Shown piece after piece: positions 13,208 to 28,447 of a stretch of DNA of 64,000 nt. The stretch comes from Candidatus Eiseniibacteriota bacterium (GTDB lineage: Bacteria > Eisenbacteria > RBG-16-71-46 > SZUA-252). The notes beneath the pieces are model-generated. The model was not told where the DNA came from, made no database searches, and worked only from the letters and a program-made list of their open reading frames with translations. How positions within the stretch are numbered: the stretch's first letter is position 1; each line of letters opens with the position of its first letter. The DNA lies in NCBI GenBank assembly GCA_031370645.1, contig JANMQV010000006.1, positions 11,314 through 75,313 of the forward strand. The letters are read 5' to 3'. The translations under genes and the position numbers were made by a program.

Positions 13208-17883
<4,676 letters not shown>

Positions 17884-17884
<1 letters not shown>

Positions 17885-20800
17885 CAGAACGAACTCCGGA
17901 GTTCGAGCCGCGCGGTGTAGCTGCCGGTGCCGCTCGGAACGGCCGCGCCGTTCACTCCAAGCGTCAGCTGAAGCCGGTCGCGCATCGTCCACTCGGAGAG
18001 AAGATCGTAATCGAGCCGCCCCCCGAGCACGGGTGCGAGAAAGGCTCCCGACGGCGCGTAGGATCCGTTCCGTTCGGTCTTCCCCCAGAGCGCTCGCGCG
18101 TCGACGCGAAGACGTCCCCCGGAAGCGCAACGGATCGCGGGGCCGGCCGACCAGGTCGTCTGCGTCCCGCCTCGAAGCGCGTCGCGATCCAGCCGATGCC
18201 TCCCGATGAGCGAGAGATTCCACTGCGGTCCCGCGGCCCGAGAGAGTTCGACCTCAGCACCTCGTCCCGTGAGGCGGCTCCGGGCCCGGTCGGGCGAGTC
18301 GGAGCGAGTCGATGCGTAGCGGCTCTGATCGATGGTGATGCGCTCGGAGAGCCGGAGACGCGCCGGCAACGGATGGCGCGCTCGAAGCGTCGCGTCGCGC
18401 GAATCGCGGCCGACGCGCAGGTTCTCGAGATCGCCCAGGAGTTCTCGGCGCGCTCCCGCCTCGGCACGAAGTTCGTAGCGGGCGCCGGCGGGGACGAATT
18501 CGAGCGTCTGGCGCCCGCTCCATTCCCCGCGAATCGTGGCGTCGCCGTCGAGGTAGTCGCTGAATCGGAACGCGCGCTCCAGCCGCCCGAGCGGGAGGCG
18601 CGACTGGCTGTCGAGGCGAAGAAGCGTGCTCGCGCCGAGCGCGCGCCACCAGGCTCGCCGCGCGGCCGGCGTCCGCGCCGCCCGTGCGGGGTAGGCGTCG
18701 AGCCGCCACTGCCACGAGGCCTTTGTTCTCGTCGCCTCCGGGCCCGTCACGCTCACGAACTCGTAGCCCCCTCCCGGGGAGAGCGTGCCGGTCGCGTCGT
18801 AGGAGCCGAGCCCCGGGCCGAGGGCGACGAGCGAGCGCTGCCGTTCTGGCTCCCGCACCTGTGAAACATCCCACCGGACTTCGCTCGTGAGGGCGCCTCC
18901 CGCTCGGCCTCCGGTGAGGACAACCTGAGCGAGATCGGTGTCGGTGCCGCCGCTCGCTCCGCGCGACCGCCGGCGCGAGAGCGAGGCGTCGACCGTGACG
19001 AGGTCCGCGCGAACCGTGGCGCCGCCATCGAACGCGACCGAGCGGCGGGTCCGATCCCCCTGCGAAAGGTTCACCTCGAGCGGGGCTTCGAGATCCCGCC
19101 GCCAGGTGACCCCGCCGCGGAATCGCATCGCGGTGGCCGGCGAGAGGACGACGCTGCTCGAGGCGAAGCGCGTGTCGCGGCGCGCGACCGAGTCGCCGTC
19201 CGCGCCCGACACCCGCTCTGATCCGGCGCGAAGGTGCGGCTGTACCACGCCTCGGTCGCGGCCGAGATCGAGACCCCAACGTGCACGCCTCCCCGCACCG
19301 CTCGCGCCGTCATTTCTCGCCTCCTCCCATCGCGCCGTCCCCCCTACGAAGCCGCGCCACTCCGCCTCGGCGGCTCGCCTCGTGGAGCGGGCGCCGTCGG
19401 CGAGACGCCGGTGGCCCCATTCGCCCCGAAGGCTCGCGGCGTTCGAGGCGTCGTATTGCGCCGTCGCTTCGTAGCGTCGCTCTCCCACGTCGCCCGAGCG
19501 CTGATTCCAGCGATCCCCTTCGAACGCCGCGTCAACCCGATCGAACGAGGTGAACGATTCGTCGCGCGAACGAAGGGAGACCCCGGCGCGGAGCGCTCCC
19601 GCCTTCCGGCCGAAAAGCCGAAGCGGGCGCGGGTCGAGGCGAAGGGCCGCGCGCGCGGCGATACCGCCGTTGTCGCCGTCGTCGCGCGCGCTCAGGAGGT
19701 TTCGATCGAGCGAGGAGCGGGCGAACTCCGCGTCGAGCGAGACCGCACCGCCGAATCGCGTCGTGCCGCCCACATCGAAGAGCGCGGCCGCCGCCGGCAC
19801 CGCGAGCGAACGGCCGGGGGTGAAGTCGCCGAGCGAAGACCCGATGTAGTGATAGTAGCGAGTACCGTCGACTCCGACCGTGTCGGCGTACGAGCCGCGC
19901 CCGGCGCCGACTTCGGAGAACTCGACATCGTGATCGCCTCCGCCCACGCCCAGGTAAACCCAGCGGGGAGCGGCGGCATCGCTTTCGTCCCACGCGTAGG
20001 AGCCGGCCCCCGGACCGACGTAGCGCACGCCGCTCGGGAGCGGCGCGTCGGCGGAGTCTCCCGCCCCGGAGAGCGCGTCACGGTCTTCGCGCGTCAATTC
20101 CGCGCCGAAGGGACGCTTCCAATCGTCCCCCTCGCGGAGGTAGGCCGCATACCAGTTCCGGCGGAGATCCCCTCCGCGCGTCGCCGCTGAATAGAGCTGC
20201 CGTTTGTAACGCGATGCCGCCTCCTCGTAGTCGACCGCGATTCGATTCGCGGCCGCGATCGGCCGACGCACCGTGAAGCTGATCGTGCCCGCGGAGTAGT
20301 CCATCACGTAATCGGCGTCGGCGCCGCGGCGAAGCTTGCCGCCGTCGAGCCAGACCGTCTCGCTCCCGGCCACGATGCCGCCGTCGCCCCCGCTCGAGAC
20401 GGTGCGCGTGGTGAGAACGTACGGTCCCTGCTTCCCCTCTTCCCCGCGGAATTCGGCCGCGCGCCGCTCCCCTTTCGCACCGGCGGCGGTAACGTCCCAA
20501 TGAGTCCCGCGCACGTTCGCCGCGCCGCGCACGCCTTGCAACTCTCGGCTTAGGCGCGCGAACTCTCCCGGGAACGCGTCGAGGCGGAAGTCGCCGAGCG
20601 TCGCCTCTCCGCCCGGCGCCCGAACGGCGAGCGAGAGACGGTCGAGATCGTCGAGTTCGCGCGTGGCGCCGTCGGGTTCGAACGGGAGCGCGCGATCGCT
20701 CAGAGTCGCGCTCACGTCGACGTCGCCCGCGATCCGGCCGCGGAGCGAAAGATCGAGCCCCTGAGAGAGCGTGGCGTCGCGGCGGCGGCCGAGTTCGACG

Positions 20801-21162
20801 GCGAACGATTTCGAGCCGCTCACCGTGATGCGATCCCCACTCGCGGCGGCGTCGCCCACCGTACCGGCGAAGGCGTCGCGCCGCAGCAGTGTCGCCGCGC
20901 CCTCCGCAGGAGCCGCGCCCCAGGCTTCGCGCGCCCCGGGTGGAAGTGACGCGGCGGCGGCAAGCGGCGCGCTCGCCCGGAGCAGGAGGAGGGAGGGCGA
21001 ATTCCGCACCGGGAGGATGAGAACCGTCGAATCCGGTTCGGCGGGGGCATCACCGGCGGTGCGCGGCTCGGAGTCGTCCGAGGTGGGACGCGCGAACGCG
21101 CCACCCGGGACGAGAACGAGCCACAGGGCCAGAAGCGCGCCGGTCTTCGCGCGGGCGCTCAT
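17884..21162 (-). CDS. Large (~1090 aa) exported beta-barrel protein with a SprA/Sov-like N-terminal region
   Basis: Signal peptide; segment IVAGSETVWLDG..LRRG...DYVMDYSAGTISF recalls SprA; many amphipathic strands; C-terminal ARLELRSSF. Start ATG 21162 (ATGA overlap). Confidence 0.65.
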
Positions 21163-22190
21163 GGCGCGGCGCCCCGATCGATGGTGAAGATCCAAATCTC
21201 ACCGCGCGTCTCATCGGCGACGGCGATTCGATCGTCCGGGCTCCAGGCGATCGCCCCGGGCCTCCACGCGTGCCGCTCCCCGCCGAGCCACCGGGTATGA
21301 AGTCGCGCGCCGTCCGACCCGAACACGAGAAGGCGCGCCCCCGCCGCATCGGCCACGTAGAGGGCGCCCGAGTCGTCGGCGGCCAGATCGATCGGCTCGG
21401 CGGCGAGGGAATCTCCCGCCGGGATACCCGGCCCCACGCGCCCCGTCGCGTCGAACCGGCGGAGCGTTCCCGCTTCGCGATCGGCGATCCACCCTCCTCC
21501 TTCGGGGAGAAAGACGGCGGCCGACGGCGAGCCGACCGACTCCTCGGGCGTGAGGAAGCGACCGGCGCGCCGGCGAAGAAGGCGCGAGTCGAGCGGGATC
21601 AAGTCGCGCGCGCGCGGCGCGAGGAGCCAGAGGTCGCCGTACGGATCGCGCAGGAGGCGTGCCTCGGGCGCGCGCGCCTCGTCGGCCAATTGAAGGTCGA
21701 TGTCGCGCGTTCCGAGGTAGGCGGTGCGGCGGTCGTAGGCCAAGAGCGACGCGTGCGAGCGATCGAGCACGAGGAGCGATCCCCGCGCGTCGACGACGAG
21801 GTCGTGGGGTAGCGCCGAAGCCGGAGCGTCGTCGCCGAAAATGGTACCGAGGCCCGCCTCCGCCGCCGGCACGGTGGCCGCCCCGCGCGAGGGATCGCCG
21901 GCGCGAGGAGGGAGCGAAAGCCGTACGACGCGCCTCGCGCGCGCGTCGAGCACGTAGAGCGCGCCCTCTCCGTCGAACGCGAGCCGCGACGGGCGTTCGA
22001 TGCCGGCCGCGCGGAGGCGATCGTGGTCGAGAAGGAGTTCCGCCCGCAGCGATCGCGGCGGCGCATCGGTGCGCCCGCGCCGTTCGATGTCGGGGGTCGG
22101 GAGCGCATGAGCGGGGCGCGGGACGGCCGGAGCGGCGAGGAGGCAGGCGAAGCAGACGGCCGCGAGGGCCAACCCCGTAGTTCGGCTCAC
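21159..22190 (-). CDS. Exported NHL-repeat beta-propeller protein
   Basis: Signal peptide; repeats PSRLAFDGEGALYVLD, PHDLVVDARGSLLVLD, PIDLAADDSGALYVAD and PGAIAWSPDDRIAVAD. Confidence 0.85.
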   Translation of the reverse strand: MSRTTGLALAAVCFACLLAAPAVPRPAHALPTPDIERRGRTDAPPRSLRAELLLDHDRLRAAGIERPSRLAFDGEGALYVLDARARRVVRLSLPPRAGDPSRGAATVPAAEAGLGTIFGDDAPASALPHDLVVDARGSLLVLDRSHASLLAYDRRTAYLGTRDIDLQLADEARAPEARLLRDPYGDLWLLAPRARDLIPLDSRLLRRRAGRFLTPEESVGSPSAAVFLPEGGGWIADREAGTLRRFDATGRVGPGIPAGDSLAAEPIDLAADDSGALYVADAAGARLLVFGSDGARLHTRWLGGERHAWRPGAIAWSPDDRIAVADETRGEIWIFTIDRGAAP

Positions 22191-22263: not shown

Positions 22264-23157
22264 CTAAAAGCGGCGGAGGAGGATGACGCGCGCGCCGCCG
22301 TCCGGCGTGGCGTCGGCCAGGAGGCGCGTTCCCTCGTCGAGCCGCGCCTGCCCGTCCTTCATGAGGCGACGATGCAGGACCTGCGTGTCGATCGCGCTCA
22401 CGAGACGATTGAGGATCGCCGCGGCGAACGAGTACTTCGCGCGGTCGTAGGCTCGATTGGACGAAGCGCGCGTGGTCCGATACGACTTCTGAAGTTCCGC
22501 GCTGCTCCAGTTCCAGGCGCGGTCGCCCGACGGCAGATTCTTCGCCACGTAGTCGTCCTGCGCCGCGGGGTCGTCGGGAAATTGGTCGCGCGCATCGCGG
22601 CGCACGGTCTCTTCGTAGCTTCCCGGGCCGGAGCCGCTCGAGCGCTCGTACTGTCCCACCAACTTCCAGTAGCTATCGCTCTCGCTGCCGGTCCCCACGC
22701 CCGCGTTCAATTGAGCCTGTTCGATGTAATCGTCGCGGCGAAGTCTCCCCGCCACTTCGAACCAGACGTAGTGCGTCCAGATGAGCCCTTCCGCGGCGAA
22801 GAATCCGGCAGCGCGTCCGCGCGCGCCGAGCGAGAGTTCGCCGGCGCCGGGAAGGAGAAGCGAATAGAGCAGAGCCTTCCGCTTCCCGGGACGCTTGGCC
22901 GGCGCCGAATCCGTCGTCGGAGCCGGCGGAGCATCCTGTCGCGTGAACGACGCCTCAGCCATCGCCGACGCCGAACGGTCGGCACCGGCGTCGCGCGCGG
23001 CGAGTTCGAGCGGTGTGGAGACGGGCAGGTGGAGCGAAGACGACGTGGCGGCAGGCTCGGCGAGCGCACGCGCGGCCGCCGGCAAGGCGACCAGGAGTGA
23101 GAACGCCGCGGCGAGCGCGCTAGTAAAGGCGGCGCGTGACCGTGATCTTGAGCGCAT
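22264..23157 (-). CDS. Exported/membrane hypothetical protein (DUF5683-like), paralog 2
   Basis: Signal peptide; KALLYSLLLPGAGELSLG, NRLVSAID; ends in RRF. Similar to the upstream ORF. Confidence 0.7.
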   Translation of the reverse strand: MRSRSRSRAAFTSALAAAFSLLVALPAAARALAEPAATSSSLHLPVSTPLELAARDAGADRSASAMAEASFTRQDAPPAPTTDSAPAKRPGKRKALLYSLLLPGAGELSLGARGRAAGFFAAEGLIWTHYVWFEVAGRLRRDDYIEQAQLNAGVGTGSESDSYWKLVGQYERSSGSGPGSYEETVRRDARDQFPDDPAAQDDYVAKNLPSGDRAWNWSSAELQKSYRTTRASSNRAYDRAKYSFAAAILNRLVSAIDTQVLHRRLMKDGQARLDEGTRLLADATPDGGARVILLRRF

Positions 23158-24009: not shown

Positions 24010-27000
24010 CTATCTAACAACGGCGAACTTCTGGAACGAGACCTCGCTGGCGCTACCGCGGCGGGCTTCGATCCTAACCAGATATACCCCGCTCGAGAGG
24101 TTTTGTAGCGGCAATTTCGTCACATTTTGCGCGGGCGCGGTCTCGCCCTGCATGGTTCGCACCACCTCCCCGGTCGGATCCAGGACGCGAATCTCGACCG
24201 AAGAGACTCCCGAATCGAGCGTGTAGGCGATCCCGATCTCATTGCCCCGAGACGGGTTGGGGAAGCAGTAGAAGGAACCCTTCGCGACGAGAGCCCCCCG
24301 CGCGGCGGGTGCCGCCAGCTGGAACTCGTCGAGAACGGCGCTCCGCCGGCGGTCGCCATGGAGTCCGATCCAGGGAGTGCGAGCGCTCGTCCCGTCGGTG
24401 CTGAAGAGCGCGCTATCGGCCCGGACATCCGTCTGGTGGACGTCCCACTGGCCGAAATCCCCCACCGCCACCACGTGGAGCCACGCCGGCCCCGCCGGGT
24501 CGATCGGGACATCGGGTCCGTTGAGCGAGACCAACAGGGGCGTCGATTGGGTCGAGCGCTCCATTCCGAGGGGCCACCCGCTGACCGTCCGGCCCGTGGC
24601 GTCGAGCGCCACGAGAAGACCGTTGGTCAGTGCCACGAGCACATCCTGCGTTCCATTTCCGTCGAGATCCCCCACCACCGGCGAGCCCGAACCTCCACCG
24701 GCTCCGGCCCCGTAGCGAGACGCCAGTCGAACGGGCCAGCCGAGTGCTTCCACGCCGTTCCGGTTCCAGCGGTGAACCGAGCCCTGATCGTCCACCGCCA
24801 TGATCTCGGGGAAGCCGTCGCCGTCGAGATCTCCCGCGGCCGCGGCGCCGAGCGTCCCCGCCACGGTGACGGGCCAGCCGCGCAGTTCCGCGCCGCTCAG
24901 GTCGAAGGCGTGAACGGTCCCCCGTGGAGAATCGACCACGATCACTTCAAGTTCACGATTCGGGTCGCGGTCGAGATCAACGCCGAGGAGTGTTGGATTG
25001 AAATCGTTGACCCCGGTGATCGCGCGCCAGACGACATCGATGGCGCCGCCTCCCTTCCCGGGCTGATCGACGACGCGGAGGTAACCGTCCCGCGTGGCGT
25101 AGGCCATGGAGTACCCGCCAACGCCGTGGAAGCGCCCCACGGCGAGATTCCCCGACACCTCCGTCGTGACGGGCGTCGTGCCGTCGAGAAGCGTGTCGCA
25201 CGCCGCGGATACGAGAGGAGCGATGGAAACACTGTCGGAAGGAGTCACGACGAAGACGCGACCGTCGCTCGTGCCGACGAGGATATTTCCGTCGGGCGAG
25301 AGGACCGGCCCCGTCGTGGCGTTGATGGAAGGATCACCGAGCGTCGGAGGCCAGCCGAAGAGTGAAATCGCCTGCCCCGCCGATTGGGAGTCGGGGCGGA
25401 CGGCGTAGAGACGGCCGTCGTCGCAGGCAGCCACGATCCCCGCGCCGTGTCGTGCCGCCGGATTCCGCCGGAAGAGCGAGTCGACGAAGAGAACCGGCCC
25501 GCGAATCTTCGCGGGGAGCGGCATGAATTCACCGCTCTCGCGCCCGTTCACGTAGGGACGCCCGTCCCCCATCCAGGCGAGAATCAGGCTATCCGCCGCG
25601 GTGACGAGCGATCGTCGTCCGTCGTGAAGGAGGCTCCCGAACGTCGGCGCGCCGAGTCCTCGACCCACCGCGCTCAAAAGCGGCCAGCCCGGAAGTCGAA
25701 TGGTCGACTCGACCGACACGATCATATCGACGGCGGGAGCAGAGAGGACGCGGAGCGTGACGTGGCTGAGGGCGCCGTCGTTCGTGGTCGTGCTCGGATT
25801 CGTATTCGGACCGAGGACGGTGTGGTTGCCGACGAAGTAGGGATCGAAGGGGCTCCCGTAGAAGTAGTACGACGCGGGATCCCCGAGGTCCTTGATCCCG
25901 TCCGCTTCCATGAGGCCGACGCCGAGCCGCTCGGGATTCGAATTGATGCCGAAGTCGGGATTCGCATTCGGCCCGCAGACGAAGCCCGCCCCCGTGCCCG
26001 ACACCTCGCCGGTGACGGTGCAGAAGACGGAGGGATCGATGTGCCAGACGAGAATGCCCTGCCCCGGGAGGAGGAAGTCGTACTCCTTGTCGCCGGTCGT
26101 ATCGAGCGGGTCGGCGCTCGAGAGTCCCGGCCCGAGAATGACGTTGGTCGTGGAATCGCGATCGAGATAGAGCGATTGATCGCCGTTCAAGTCGGTCTGA
26201 CGATTCTCCACGAGGAGGTATTCGTCCCCGTCGAGCGGGATGTAGAGCAATCGAGGGTCGAGTTGCGTCGACTTCAAGGGAGTCGTGACTTGCCGCTCGG
26301 GATCGGTGAACTCGAGCCCCGCAGGCCAGAGGAGCGACTTGCACCAGGGGTCGAGGCTCGTCGGCATGATGCCGCTGGCGACGACGATGGCGCCCGTCTT
26401 CGAGTCCTGGAGCGCCGTGCCGAGGAGATACCCCGAGTCCATGTTGCTCCAGATGCCGACCGCCGGGAAGAACGTGTTGATGTCGTAGAGATCGGGAAGC
26501 CCCTGCGTGTGTCCGAACTCATGCGCGAGCGTGCCGTTGATGGCCCCGAAGTAGCCGTCCTGATTCTCCGTCTCCGGCATGACGAGTCCGCCGAAGATGC
26601 CGCGCGCGCCCCCGTTTACCGCGGCCGATTCCTCGAGAGAGATTTGGAAGGTCGGAAGGTCGCGCTGCGAGTCGCCGAGGATGTCCGACTGGTAGTCGGC
26701 GCCGGCGTGGAAGATCGAGACGACGTCGAAGTCGCCGAAGGGAATCGAATCGGTGGCGTCGGCCGCCAGGACCGCGTCGCGGAAGAAGCGCTGCGCTTCG
26801 GCGAACGACTGACTCCCGAGCGTCCAGGGGCCGTAACGACCCGTGTCGCCGAGGCGGTACGCGCTGTTCTCCGCCTTCGGATAGACGTCGTACTCGACGA
26901 CGAGCTGTCCGTACGACTGCTGCTTGAAATAGCGCGAGAGCGCTTCCAGGTGCGAGAGGAAGAAGCTTCGGTTGTGCGGCGGTGGATCGATGACGATGCC

Positions 27001-27462
27001 GAGCGCCGATCCATCGCGGAGATCGAACTTGCCGTCGGAGGTGCTGGTGGCGCTCCCGAGACTGTCGGTGTCGAACTCGACGCGAAGGGCGAGCACTCGC
27101 ACGGTGTCGGCCACGCCCGTGGTGGAGAGCGCGCGCTCGAGCCGACCGGCGCCGTTCGGCGCGAGGAGCGGAGGTTTCCGGCCGCTGATCCAGGGAGATC
27201 GGCGTCCCCCGCCGAGATGCTCGGGGAAGGCGCGCCTTAGCGCGAGCCGGCGATCGGTGAGCATCTTCACCGCCTGGCGATCGGCGGCCGAAAGCGCTTC
27301 GGGCCGCGCCTTCGCCACGCGCCACGGCTCTCCCCGGCGGACGGGTGCGGTGGGGACCGGTGCCCCGGCAGCCTCCGCGCGGGAAACAAAAGGAGCCAGG
27401 CTTCCGAACGAAGCCTGGCTCCCGAGGAGTAGCGTGACGATCCAGCGCTTCAGGCGCCCCAC
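24010..27462 (-). CDS. Secreted M6 (immune inhibitor A-like) metalloprotease with FG-GAP repeats and a T9SS-type C-terminal sorting domain
   Basis: FHAGAD, HEFGHTQGLPDLY (HExxHxxGxxD), DPWCK, EYLLVENR and GILVWH; repeats GDLDGDGFPEI and GWP; sorting domain CFPNPS...SSGVYLVRI...KFAVVR. Confidence 0.88.
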   Translation of the reverse strand: MGRLKRWIVTLLLGSQASFGSLAPFVSRAEAAGAPVPTAPVRRGEPWRVAKARPEALSAADRQAVKMLTDRRLALRRAFPEHLGGGRRSPWISGRKPPLLAPNGAGRLERALSTTGVADTVRVLALRVEFDTDSLGSATSTSDGKFDLRDGSALGIVIDPPPHNRSFFLSHLEALSRYFKQQSYGQLVVEYDVYPKAENSAYRLGDTGRYGPWTLGSQSFAEAQRFFRDAVLAADATDSIPFGDFDVVSIFHAGADYQSDILGDSQRDLPTFQISLEESAAVNGGARGIFGGLVMPETENQDGYFGAINGTLAHEFGHTQGLPDLYDINTFFPAVGIWSNMDSGYLLGTALQDSKTGAIVVASGIMPTSLDPWCKSLLWPAGLEFTDPERQVTTPLKSTQLDPRLLYIPLDGDEYLLVENRQTDLNGDQSLYLDRDSTTNVILGPGLSSADPLDTTGDKEYDFLLPGQGILVWHIDPSVFCTVTGEVSGTGAGFVCGPNANPDFGINSNPERLGVGLMEADGIKDLGDPASYYFYGSPFDPYFVGNHTVLGPNTNPSTTTNDGALSHVTLRVLSAPAVDMIVSVESTIRLPGWPLLSAVGRGLGAPTFGSLLHDGRRSLVTAADSLILAWMGDGRPYVNGRESGEFMPLPAKIRGPVLFVDSLFRRNPAARHGAGIVAACDDGRLYAVRPDSQSAGQAISLFGWPPTLGDPSINATTGPVLSPDGNILVGTSDGRVFVVTPSDSVSIAPLVSAACDTLLDGTTPVTTEVSGNLAVGRFHGVGGYSMAYATRDGYLRVVDQPGKGGGAIDVVWRAITGVNDFNPTLLGVDLDRDPNRELEVIVVDSPRGTVHAFDLSGAELRGWPVTVAGTLGAAAAGDLDGDGFPEIMAVDDQGSVHRWNRNGVEALGWPVRLASRYGAGAGGGSGSPVVGDLDGNGTQDVLVALTNGLLVALDATGRTVSGWPLGMERSTQSTPLLVSLNGPDVPIDPAGPAWLHVVAVGDFGQWDVHQTDVRADSALFSTDGTSARTPWIGLHGDRRRSAVLDEFQLAAPAARGALVAKGSFYCFPNPSRGNEIGIAYTLDSGVSSVEIRVLDPTGEVVRTMQGETAPAQNVTKLPLQNLSSGVYLVRIEARRGSASEVSFQKFAVVR

Positions 27463-27475
27463 GTCGATGGCGATC

Positions 27476-28447
27476 TTAGAAGTGGTAGCTGGCCGAGAAG
27501 CGGCTTGTACGATTCAGGAACTCCGACTGCGGGAACGACGCGTAGTCGAAGCGGAACCCCTTGTACGTCAGGCCGAGCCCGTAGGTCGCGTCCGTAATCG
27601 TGCCGATCGGGTCGCTGATGTAGCCAACCCGAAGCGCGATGAGCCGGTTGAACTCGTATTCGATGCCGGCATTCCAGACGCTCACGCCGAGTACCTCGTC
27701 CGGAAGGAGGAAGCGATTCGCGTCGGCGGCGATCAGGACCCGGTGAACCTCGTTTTCAAACGGGGTATAGGCGAACCCGATCTTCAGATTGCGACCGAGC
27801 GGATCGGACTGATCCTCATCGATGTACGCGATGCTCGGGCCGAGGTTTTGGATTACCGCCGCGAAGGACGCCTTCCATTTCGGCACTTTGTAGAGGGTCC
27901 CGATGTCGGCGGCGAACGACGTGCCCCGTCCGGCGCGGCCGTCGAGGGTCACCGTGGCCGGCGCGAGATCGACCCGCAGCAGCTTCAGCGCCACGCCGAA
28001 TCCGAGGTTGTCGCCGATTTCGGTTCCGTAGGCGATCGTCGGGGCGATTTCATAGGAACTGAATTCGCCGGTCACATTGCCGTCCGGATCGGTTCCCTCG
28101 GTCTTGCCGTAGGAGAGATAACCGATCGCAGCACCGAGACCGCCCCATCCCTCAACATGCTGCACATACGCGAGGTAGGAGAAGTTGACGTCGTCGGCCA
28201 GATCCGGCACGAGCTGCGTGTACATGAACGACGCGTCGTGGCCGCGGGCGAAGGCCATGGCGCCCGGATTCCACCAAATCATGTTGGCGTCGTCCGCCAC
28301 GGCGACGAAGGCGCGCCCCATGCCGTCCGAGCGAGCCCCGGGGGCAATGAGGGAAGACGCCGCGCCGGCTTGCGACTGCGCGTGGGCTGTTCCGACCGTG
28401 CCCACCAATAGCAGGGCCGCCAGGCAGAGCGTGGTGAAACGAATCAT
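27476..28447 (-). CDS. porV: PorV/PorQ-family T9SS outer membrane protein
   Basis: LIAPGARSDGMG, ADDANMIWWNPG, LVPDLADD, IQNLGP and LRVGY; C-terminal SYHF; strong GGAGG RBS. Confidence 0.85.
   Translation of the reverse strand: MIRFTTLCLAALLLVGTVGTAHAQSQAGAASSLIAPGARSDGMGRAFVAVADDANMIWWNPGAMAFARGHDASFMYTQLVPDLADDVNFSYLAYVQHVEGWGGLGAAIGYLSYGKTEGTDPDGNVTGEFSSYEIAPTIAYGTEIGDNLGFGVALKLLRVDLAPATVTLDGRAGRGTSFAADIGTLYKVPKWKASFAAVIQNLGPSIAYIDEDQSDPLGRNLKIGFAYTPFENEVHRVLIAADANRFLLPDEVLGVSVWNAGIEYEFNRLIALRVGYISDPIGTITDATYGLGLTYKGFRFDYASFPQSEFLNRTSRFSASYHF

Follow-up and report, generated by a model that had tools for sequence, protein, structure and literature searches.

We analyzed a window of 64 kb of high-GC DNA (63 to 74% GC) from a Candidatus Eiseniibacteriota bacterium (GenBank assembly GCA_031370645.1, contig JANMQV010000006.1, positions 11,314 to 75,313), focusing on a minus-strand gene for a predicted giant outer-membrane β-barrel (hereafter, the barrel) that is very probably a distant homolog of the translocon protein SprA. 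The genes around it follow one another on the minus strand in the order PorU-like peptidase, PorV, M6-type protease, two unannotated proteins (u288 and u297), NHL propeller, barrel, Omp85 protein, and ligA (Table 1). As listed, the open reading frame (ORF) of the barrel spans 17884..21195 (-) and opens at a TTG codon; an ATG at 21162 yields a 1092-residue form, for which an identical database record (P0004) of exactly the same length exists. The barrel gene overlaps both of its direct neighbors: its ATG is overlapped by the stop codon of the upstream NHL gene (ATGA), and its TGA overlaps the Omp85 start codon, an ATG, by one base (CTGATGC), in line with the translational coupling to a POTRA/Omp85 gene that an initial annotation, made from the sequence alone, had proposed. 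The GC content at third codon positions (GC3) is 0.82 in the barrel frame and 0.81 to 0.83 across the NHL, barrel, and Omp85 genes.

The N terminus of the barrel (MSARAKTGALLALWLVLVPGGAFA/RP) was judged by eye to be similar to a Sec signal. Residues 112 to 142 read ITVSGSKSFAVELGRRRDATLSQGLDLSLRG, that is, ITVSGSKSFAVELG...LSQGLDLSLRG, residues 263 to 296 read IVAGSETVWLDGGKLRRGADADYVMDYSAGTISF, and the C terminus reads ...LELRSSF. The signal peptide (again by eye), both motifs, and the terminal Phe singled out in the initial annotation are all present in the 1092-residue translation. The terminal Phe (F1092) is not a chance occurrence, because it is invariant in the two family profiles built here, namely, in 45 of 45 aligned members of A1, the barrel-family profile, and in 73 of 73 members of A7, an independent profile centered on candidate division KSB1; E1087 is invariant in A1 as well. 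A C-terminal Phe is the kind of signal that Omp85 machines recognize, and the barrel displays the traits of a client of the β-barrel assembly machinery (BAM)/Omp85, with a signal-like N terminus (by eye), a predicted meander of antiparallel strands, and a C-terminal aromatic residue.

The relationship to SprA is seen in profile–profile alignments (hhalign) of the barrel family with A3, a profile of 14 sequences comprising the 2057-residue SprA encoded in the same genome, twelve other SprA genes of the phylum, and a divergent SprA-type protein of 2062 residues. The latter was the one match of A1 among proteins longer than 2054 residues (E = 1.1e-9 database-wide) and scores 125 bits on TIGR04189, the NCBIfam model of SprA. 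In the comparison of A1 with A3, residues 262 to 346 of the barrel align with residues 682 to 765 of the genome's own SprA (block 2; 96.75%, E = 3.2e-10, 84 columns) and, in an alternative alignment, residues 107 to 275 align with residues 197 to 384 (block 1; 80.1%, E = 1.4e-5, 156 columns). The two blocks are collinear between the two proteins, with ~300 extra residues between them in SprA and far more beyond. Both blocks are reproduced with A7 (block 2, 97.0%, E = 1.2e-10; block 1, 95.5%, E = 1.4e-8), which adds two further weak matches, also collinear and reaching up to the last strands (E = 0.0093 and 0.012); with A1, the C-terminal part of the barrel has weak collinear similarity (P = 0.2 to 0.24), and controls with reversed SprA profiles gave best E values of 0.2 to 0.35. 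TIGR04189 itself matches the barrel in one stretch, residues 253 to 316 against profile positions 595 to 655 (21.3 bits, E = 3.2e-5), and the same region is matched by five of five distant family members (E = 5e-6 to 5.7e-4). At the level of these profiles, the homology to SprA is secure over roughly the first 240 structured residues; the first ~10 strands of the predicted barrel, together with one small inserted module, have homologous counterparts in the same linear order in SprA's N-terminal part. The initial annotation had noted a likeness to just this part of SprA and had suggested a profile comparison, which indeed recovers SprA similarity at residues 107 to 275 and 262 to 346; the size contrast that it had pointed out also holds, with 1092 residues against 2057 in the genome's own SprA, about half. 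In other subfamilies (A2, covering part of Eisenbacteria, and A7), the small DY..DY module of block 2 occurs in an extra N-terminal copy, which matches positions 640 to 704 of the SprA profile (95%, E = 3.5e-8) and is folded into strands, at residues 20 to 88, in the model of the KSB1 protein P0100; at the corresponding place, the barrel of the window has a disordered Pro/Ala linker.

An AlphaFold2 model of the barrel based on A1 has a predicted local distance difference test score (pLDDT) of 80.5 and a predicted template-modeling score (pTM) of 0.70, with residues 17 to 108 disordered. From residue 112 to 1091, where the initial annotation had seen a long region of amphipathic strands, the model is all-β, a meander of 40 long strands of about 8 to 24 residues each, which is broken by two inserts (about 240 to 306 and 352 to 457) and a few helical loops. 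The inserts lie outside the strand series and comprise about 65 to 80 and about 105 residues, respectively. A second model, of P0100 on A7 (pLDDT 85.2, pTM 0.68), displays the same series of 40 long strands and an extra small N-terminal β domain. Strands 3, 4, 8, and 9 are short (7 to 9 residues) in both models, which is no more than a hint at a lateral opening like that of SprA; neither model shows a cap. The wall of the predicted barrel consists of about 38 to 40 strands, which in these models probably close into a single barrel of at least 38 strands. The wide barrel envisaged in the initial annotation is thus predicted independently in two models, at a strand number far above the 22 or 26 of a standard TonB-dependent or LptD barrel. 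Conservation within the family is highest at residues 101 to 500, which hold the SprA-like strands, both inserts (the second with several invariant G/Y/F columns at 387 to 445 in A1), and a nearly invariant acidic loop at 494 to 498. This loop (D494, D495, D497, N498, and G500; ...ARDDGDNGG..., window positions 19672-19686, minus strand) is located between strands 13 and 14 and, by eye, looks like a calcium-binding turn.

Structural comparison places the models among membrane β-barrels in general and SprA among the matches. In the Foldseek search, which the initial annotation had recommended, SprA chains rank 2 to 4 and 16 (E about 5e-7, TM-score 0.23 to 0.25), but their scores do not rise above those of the generic barrels around them. 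The top matches of VIA-align are likewise all membrane β-barrels on a plateau of Z scores from 13 to 18, with FimD first (Z = 18.0 over 361 residues) and SprA (6h3i_A) at Z = 15.9 over 501 residues, with a root-mean-square deviation (rmsd) of 7.0. In an unbiased search of 48,161 chains with the two models, all 50 top matches were membrane β-barrels of the outer membrane or of mitochondria, and SprA ranked 12th (Z = 13.6) and 21st (Z = 13.5). In this search, SprA 6h3i_A gave the longest superposition for each model, 701 residues (next, 478) and 714 residues (next, 466), spanning the models from residue 108 or 124 to the C terminus against residues 132 to 2401 of the chain. In addition, the first structurally aligned pair, G116 of the barrel and G133 of the KSB1 protein with G141 of Flavobacterium johnsoniae SprA, is within one residue of the sequence register. 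It is the length and register of the superpositions, rather than the scores, that speak for SprA, and for these predicted structures they are consistent with the sequence result.

The barrel matches no Pfam family at E<=1, and hence no Plug, TonB_dep_Rec, Usher, LptD, TamB, or AsmA domain, and searches of the PDB sequences with phmmer and the family profile returned nothing relevant, the sole match being 1ksr_A (E = 2.2). Its relatives are numerous. Of the 8000 candidates that were scored in a word-seeded search, 101 proved to be related at E<=1e-3, nearly all of them of ~1000 to 1170 residues and every one annotated as "hypothetical" and without Pfam domains; the distant member P0100 has 1019 relatives at E<=1e-5 among 8000 candidates scored, all unnamed. 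Among 1.84 billion proteins, A1 matched 4071 representative clusters at E<=1e-3, 2278 of which reach E<=1e-30. Named records with close relatives are nearly all labeled "Candidatus Eisenbacteria bacterium", and the label in the protein atlas is Eiseniibacteriota. With the A1 profile, the family was detected in 194 of 201 sampled Eisenbacteria genomes and in 120 of the 121 high-quality ones; these phylum tallies, like those for SprA below, include one unpublished genome (G015), on which alone no claim rests. No paper on such a protein was found in the literature searched, a search outside whose scope most subscription journals lie. The family, for which neither Pfam nor NCBIfam has a model, is a widespread, unannotated relative of SprA.

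The genome that harbors the window (assembly 95% complete) carries one copy of the barrel and, on another contig next to lptF/lptG, a full-length SprA of 2057 residues (517 bits summed on TIGR04189), as the search for such a gene proposed in the initial annotation revealed. SprA is also present in 60 of 61 high-quality genomes of the phylum. Accordingly, the barrel is a core, single-copy gene of Eisenbacteria that occurs alongside full-length SprA, and we rejected the notion that it replaces a lost SprA; of the "alternative translocon" suggested initially, the sense of a replacement does not stand, because a full SprA is encoded elsewhere in the genome.

The genomic context within the phylum is highly consistent. 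In 13 Eisenbacteria loci, chosen on long contigs of the 194 genomes with a match and examined with tblastn, PorV, barrel, and Omp85 occur in this order without exception (13/13), accompanied by the protease in 10, u288 in 12, and the NHL gene in 2. A larger set of 65 named Eisenbacteria loci was evaluated where the contig left room, at least 2 kb for downstream and at least 8 kb for upstream counts: Omp85 follows the barrel in all 48 such loci, PorV and a protease with a type IX secretion system (T9SS) C-terminal sorting domain (CTD) precede it in all 35, u288 lies upstream in 32 of 35, and NHL in 8 of 35, the last figure reflecting the sensitivity of tblastn. The scarcity of the NHL gene in the tblastn loci is attributable to its fast divergence.

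Table 1. Features of the barrel gene and of its neighbors (positions are those of the window)
Feature	Position	Strand	Basis
Gene for the predicted SprA-related giant barrel, 1092 aa	17884..21162	-	Stop codon 17884-17886; ORF, translation, GC3, AlphaFold model
Signal-peptide-like N terminus, residues 1-25	21088..21162	-	Reading by eye; helix 5-17 in model
Pro/Ala-rich linker, probably disordered, residues 26-108	20839..21087	-	pLDDT <50 for 17-73 and 82-108
SprA-homologous block 1, residues 107-275: predicted barrel strands 1-8, SGSKS and LDLS motifs	20338..20844	-	
SprA-homologous block 2, residues 262-346: small inserted β module (GSE.V..DG...RG.DY..DY..G.I.F) and next barrel hairpin	20125..20379	-	
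Second inserted region, residues 352-457: one helix, short strands, repeated G.G.Y motifs	19792..20109	-	DSSP of model
C-terminal predicted barrel strands 12-40, residues 458-1092, with conserved R.E.R..F β-signal-like tail	17887..19791	-	DSSP, alignment tail
PorU-like C25 peptidase, 1428 aa	28553..32839	-	Pfam Peptidase_C25 E = 5.3e-63, FlgD_ig E = 3.2e-8
PorV	27476..28447	-	Pfam PorV E = 1.7e-20, 74.1 bits against a cutoff of 27
M6-type metalloprotease with T9SS C-terminal sorting domain (cargo)	24010..27462	-	Por_Secre_tail E = 4.1e-8, Peptidase_M6 E = 2.7e-6
u288, unannotated, 288 aa	23120..23986	-	GC3 0.81; weak DUF5683 match, E = 0.056
u297, unannotated, 297 aa, paralog of u288	22264..23157	-	GC3 0.81; no Pfam family; BLASTP to u288 E = 1e-12
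Secreted NHL-repeat β-propeller, 343 aa, coupled upstream of the barrel	21159..22190	-	Pfam NHL E = 6.9e-15, 3 stretches
Omp85/POTRA protein, 615 aa from ATG at 17884, coupled downstream of the barrel	16037..17884	-	Pfam/NCBIfam matches, junction

Outside the phylum, 80 metagenome loci were found with the KSB1-type alignment; the flanks of 12 were scanned with Pfam, and all 80 were searched with hidden Markov models. In the first Pfam-scanned set, an Omp85 gene with POTRA repeats lies directly downstream of the barrel in six of seven loci and an NHL gene directly upstream in four of seven; these Omp85 orthologs match Omp85 at E = 1e-12 to 1e-20 and contain up to three POTRA stretches. In the second set, neither Omp85 nor NHL was found beside the barrel in any of the five loci, which place it amid housekeeping genes. 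Across the metagenome loci with sufficient room, Omp85 lies within 800 nt downstream of the barrel or overlaps it in 17 of 44 (at least 2 kb of room; 13 under a stricter rule), and NHL is located just upstream in 23 of 63. Taken together, the metagenome and Eisenbacteria counts identify propeller, barrel, and Omp85 as the recurrent unit. PorV was found near the barrel in only 3 of the 80 loci, in two of them on the opposite strand. Two loci of the solo class (L149 and L150) have a PorV-like gene 113 nt upstream on the opposite strand (phmmer E = 7e-8 and 6e-9). The neighbors of solo barrels include genes for NUDIX, PfkB, RecO, tRNA synthetases, TIM, and GatB.

The reading that we tentatively favor, at somewhat less than an even chance, is that the barrel is a cap-less, distant SprA homolog of ~40 strands that works as a wide, gated protein conduit in a module with the Omp85 protein and the propeller. 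Because the predicted barrel has no cap, its lumen must be gated or filled by something else, and this requirement, together with the preferential conservation of the SprA-like part, is why a gated conduit is favored. In such a scheme, a chain of ~1000 residues, nearly all of them in 40 strands, would surround a lumen of no less than SprA's ~7 nm, through which folded protein might pass across the outer membrane; the private Omp85 protein would assemble or stabilize this unusually large barrel, the propeller would sit on the periplasmic side as a plug or adaptor, and, in Eisenbacteria, the propeller–barrel–Omp85 module would cooperate with the PorU–PorV sorting genes of the same operon. The elements of the scheme differ in standing. 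A role of the barrel as a protein-conducting channel is possible, although not quite probable; for Omp85 as a dedicated assembly factor, the chances appear evenly balanced; and the propeller as plug or adaptor is a doubtful proposition.

Several observations weigh against a translocon role of this kind. The barrel falls far below the curated cutoff of TIGR04189 (21.3 against 200 bits), PF14349 (SprA_N) does not match it at E<=1, residues 347 to 1092, two thirds of the barrel, have no significant similarity to SprA with A1, and the family profile retrieves no SprA chain from the PDB sequences even at E<=10. By score, domain, length, and cap alike, the barrel lies outside the curated SprA family. 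The structural scores do not discriminate either, with ushers and small porins at Z = 14 to 18 and SprA at 13.5 to 15.9 with an rmsd of 7 to 8.6 Å. In about half of the metagenome loci, the barrel stands alone, Omp85, NHL, and PorV not being nearby, and such solo loci are no less compatible with a general role in the envelope than with secretion; the linkage of the unit to PorU–PorV is a lineage-specific trait of Eisenbacteria. GldM (TIGR03517, PF12081) was not detected in the genome, although SprA, PorU, PorV, and CTD cargo genes are present, but because no control genome matched above either cutoff, this result carries no weight.

The alternative that best survives is that the barrel is a housekeeping component of the envelope, structural or involved in biogenesis, for instance, a scaffold, a tether, or a very large diffusion channel, kept because the outer membrane of the FCB (Fibrobacteres–Chlorobi–Bacteroidetes) type needs it, with the similarity to SprA reflecting common descent only. 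We consider this a serious but rather unlikely explanation. It would account for the near-universal, single-copy occurrence in the phylum (194/201), for the many lineages in which the gene stands alone among housekeeping genes with no Omp85 or NHL gene in the flanks, for the lack of a cap and of any recognizable cargo-binding domain in the models, and for the presence of a complete SprA in the same genome. It sits less well with the best-conserved part of the barrel being exactly the SprA-homologous one, with the operon linkage to PorU, PorV, and CTD cargo throughout Eisenbacteria (35/35), and with the gating that an open barrel of 40 strands demands, which points to a regulated conduit. At the other end, the conduit reading can be extended to a second, minimal class of translocon, in which the barrel would be a cap-less SprA paralog of ~40 strands, or the ancestral form, from which SprA would have arisen by gaining cap domains, gated by the propeller and built by the Omp85 protein; this stronger version is conceivable but rather unlikely as a whole. 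If true, no larger single-chain barrel would be known, and the mechanism of type IX transport could be approached through a simpler system.

Distinctly improbable is a role of the barrel as an accessory platform of the T9SS that would receive PorV–cargo complexes after SprA and hold them for processing and attachment by PorU, a role that, in Bacteroidota, belongs to PorQ and PorZ in the attachment complex. The single same-strand cluster of barrel, porU, porV, and CTD-bearing protease in Eisenbacteria suits such a platform, as does the location of SprA itself elsewhere, next to lptF/lptG, and the SprA-like strands may retain a PorV-binding surface; outside Eisenbacteria, however, PorV is mostly absent from the vicinity of the barrel, be it in the trio or solo (present in 3 of 80 loci). 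A diverged member of a known family, be it LptD, a TonB-dependent transporter, an usher, or a TamB/AsmA-like partner of a TamA-type Omp85, is extremely improbable, for even though FimD ushers attain the top Z scores (18.0; 15.1 to 15.4) and the partner Omp85 protein is TamA-sized, a proper LptD lies on another contig (a single 1213-aa frame on a third contig; LptD_2 E = 4.1e-60, LptD_N E = 1.8e-6), the barrel lacks any match to these families in Pfam, the usher superpositions cover only 361 to 383 residues within model positions 100 to 752, and the modeled chain, which meanders in hairpins up to an invariant terminal Phe and has closed membrane barrels as its top 50 matches, is not a TamB-type open groove. 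The candidacies of the barrel as LptD, as a TonB-dependent transporter or usher, and as a TamB/AsmA-like protein were rejected on these respective grounds. A profile search of the genome did not find PF04453.

Among characterized systems, the nearest relative is SprA/Sov (F. johnsoniae; PDB 6H3I, 6H3J, 8GL6, and 8GL8), likewise a giant single-chain outer-membrane barrel from the same superphylum. According to PMC7463736, SprA has 36 strands and a lumen of ~7 nm, no outer-membrane barrel solved to date is larger, and no second translocon of this kind is known; its extracellular cap is put at >150 kDa in PMC12611786. The two proteins have in common the first ~8 barrel strands, the DY..DY module, and the following hairpin, all collinear, and, in Eisenbacteria, the barrel gene is linked to porV/porU. 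In contrast to SprA/Sov, the barrel is half as long (1092 against 2057 to 2403 residues), lacks almost all of the extracellular cap inserts, has about 40 predicted strands instead of 36, and comes with a private Omp85 protein and an NHL propeller, which SprA does not have.

The combination of an Omp85 protein and a propeller also recalls BamA, an Omp85 protein with the propeller accessory BamB. Like TamA- and BamA-type proteins, the partner in the window has an Omp85 barrel and POTRA repeats, and a β-propeller gene adjoins the unit, but its matches are at or below the Pfam cutoff, better-scoring Omp85 genes are found elsewhere in the genome, and the propeller belongs to the NHL type and not, like BamB, to the PQQ propellers. 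In particular, Omp85 scores 22.8 bits and POTRA 18.3 bits, both just under the cutoff, whereas TIGR03303 matches at E = 1.2e-9 and PF01103 sums to 26.5 bits in frame. Five other Omp85 loci were found in the genome, and the two with higher scores, 186.9 and 142.3 bits, are likely BamA and TamA.

Single-chain barrels of at least 30 strands are also known from Deinococcus. The 30-stranded SlpA of D. radiodurans (PDB 7ZGX/8AE1) superposes on the barrel models over 422 to 478 residues (Z = 13.2 to 15.8); no sequence relationship to it was detected, and it differs in having SLH and coiled-coil parts and in forming trimers. In addition, AlphaFold-predicted 38-stranded barrels from Deinococcus are mentioned in a PNAS paper (PMC9388160); in view of these predictions, the term "largest barrel" is to be used with care. 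The family could reveal which parts of SprA are central to transport, can serve as a test case for the folding, by Omp85 machines, of barrels much larger than their usual clients, and hints at an envelope machine, so far undescribed, that several uncultured FCB phyla would have.

Some further features of the locus and genome are of interest. The paralogs u297 and u288, flanked by the T9SS cargo gene on one side and the propeller gene on the other, have in common a PGAG-type motif and an aromatic C terminus (...LLRRF and ...TRRLY, respectively). The longest ligA ORF (14025-16169, minus strand) shares about 130 nt with the end of the Omp85 gene, and its Pfam ligase domains start at residue 49; translation of ligA therefore probably begins further downstream. 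Outside the window, an Omp85-domain match of 45.6 bits (G000:C222:2956-3609, locus L022) lies within an open frame of 1574 residues, which is unusually long for an Omp85 protein. Three PorV-family matches outside the window (G000 contigs C189, C195, and C169; 37, 29.5, and 21.5 bits, respectively) indicate that the genome encodes several PorV/FadL-like barrels.

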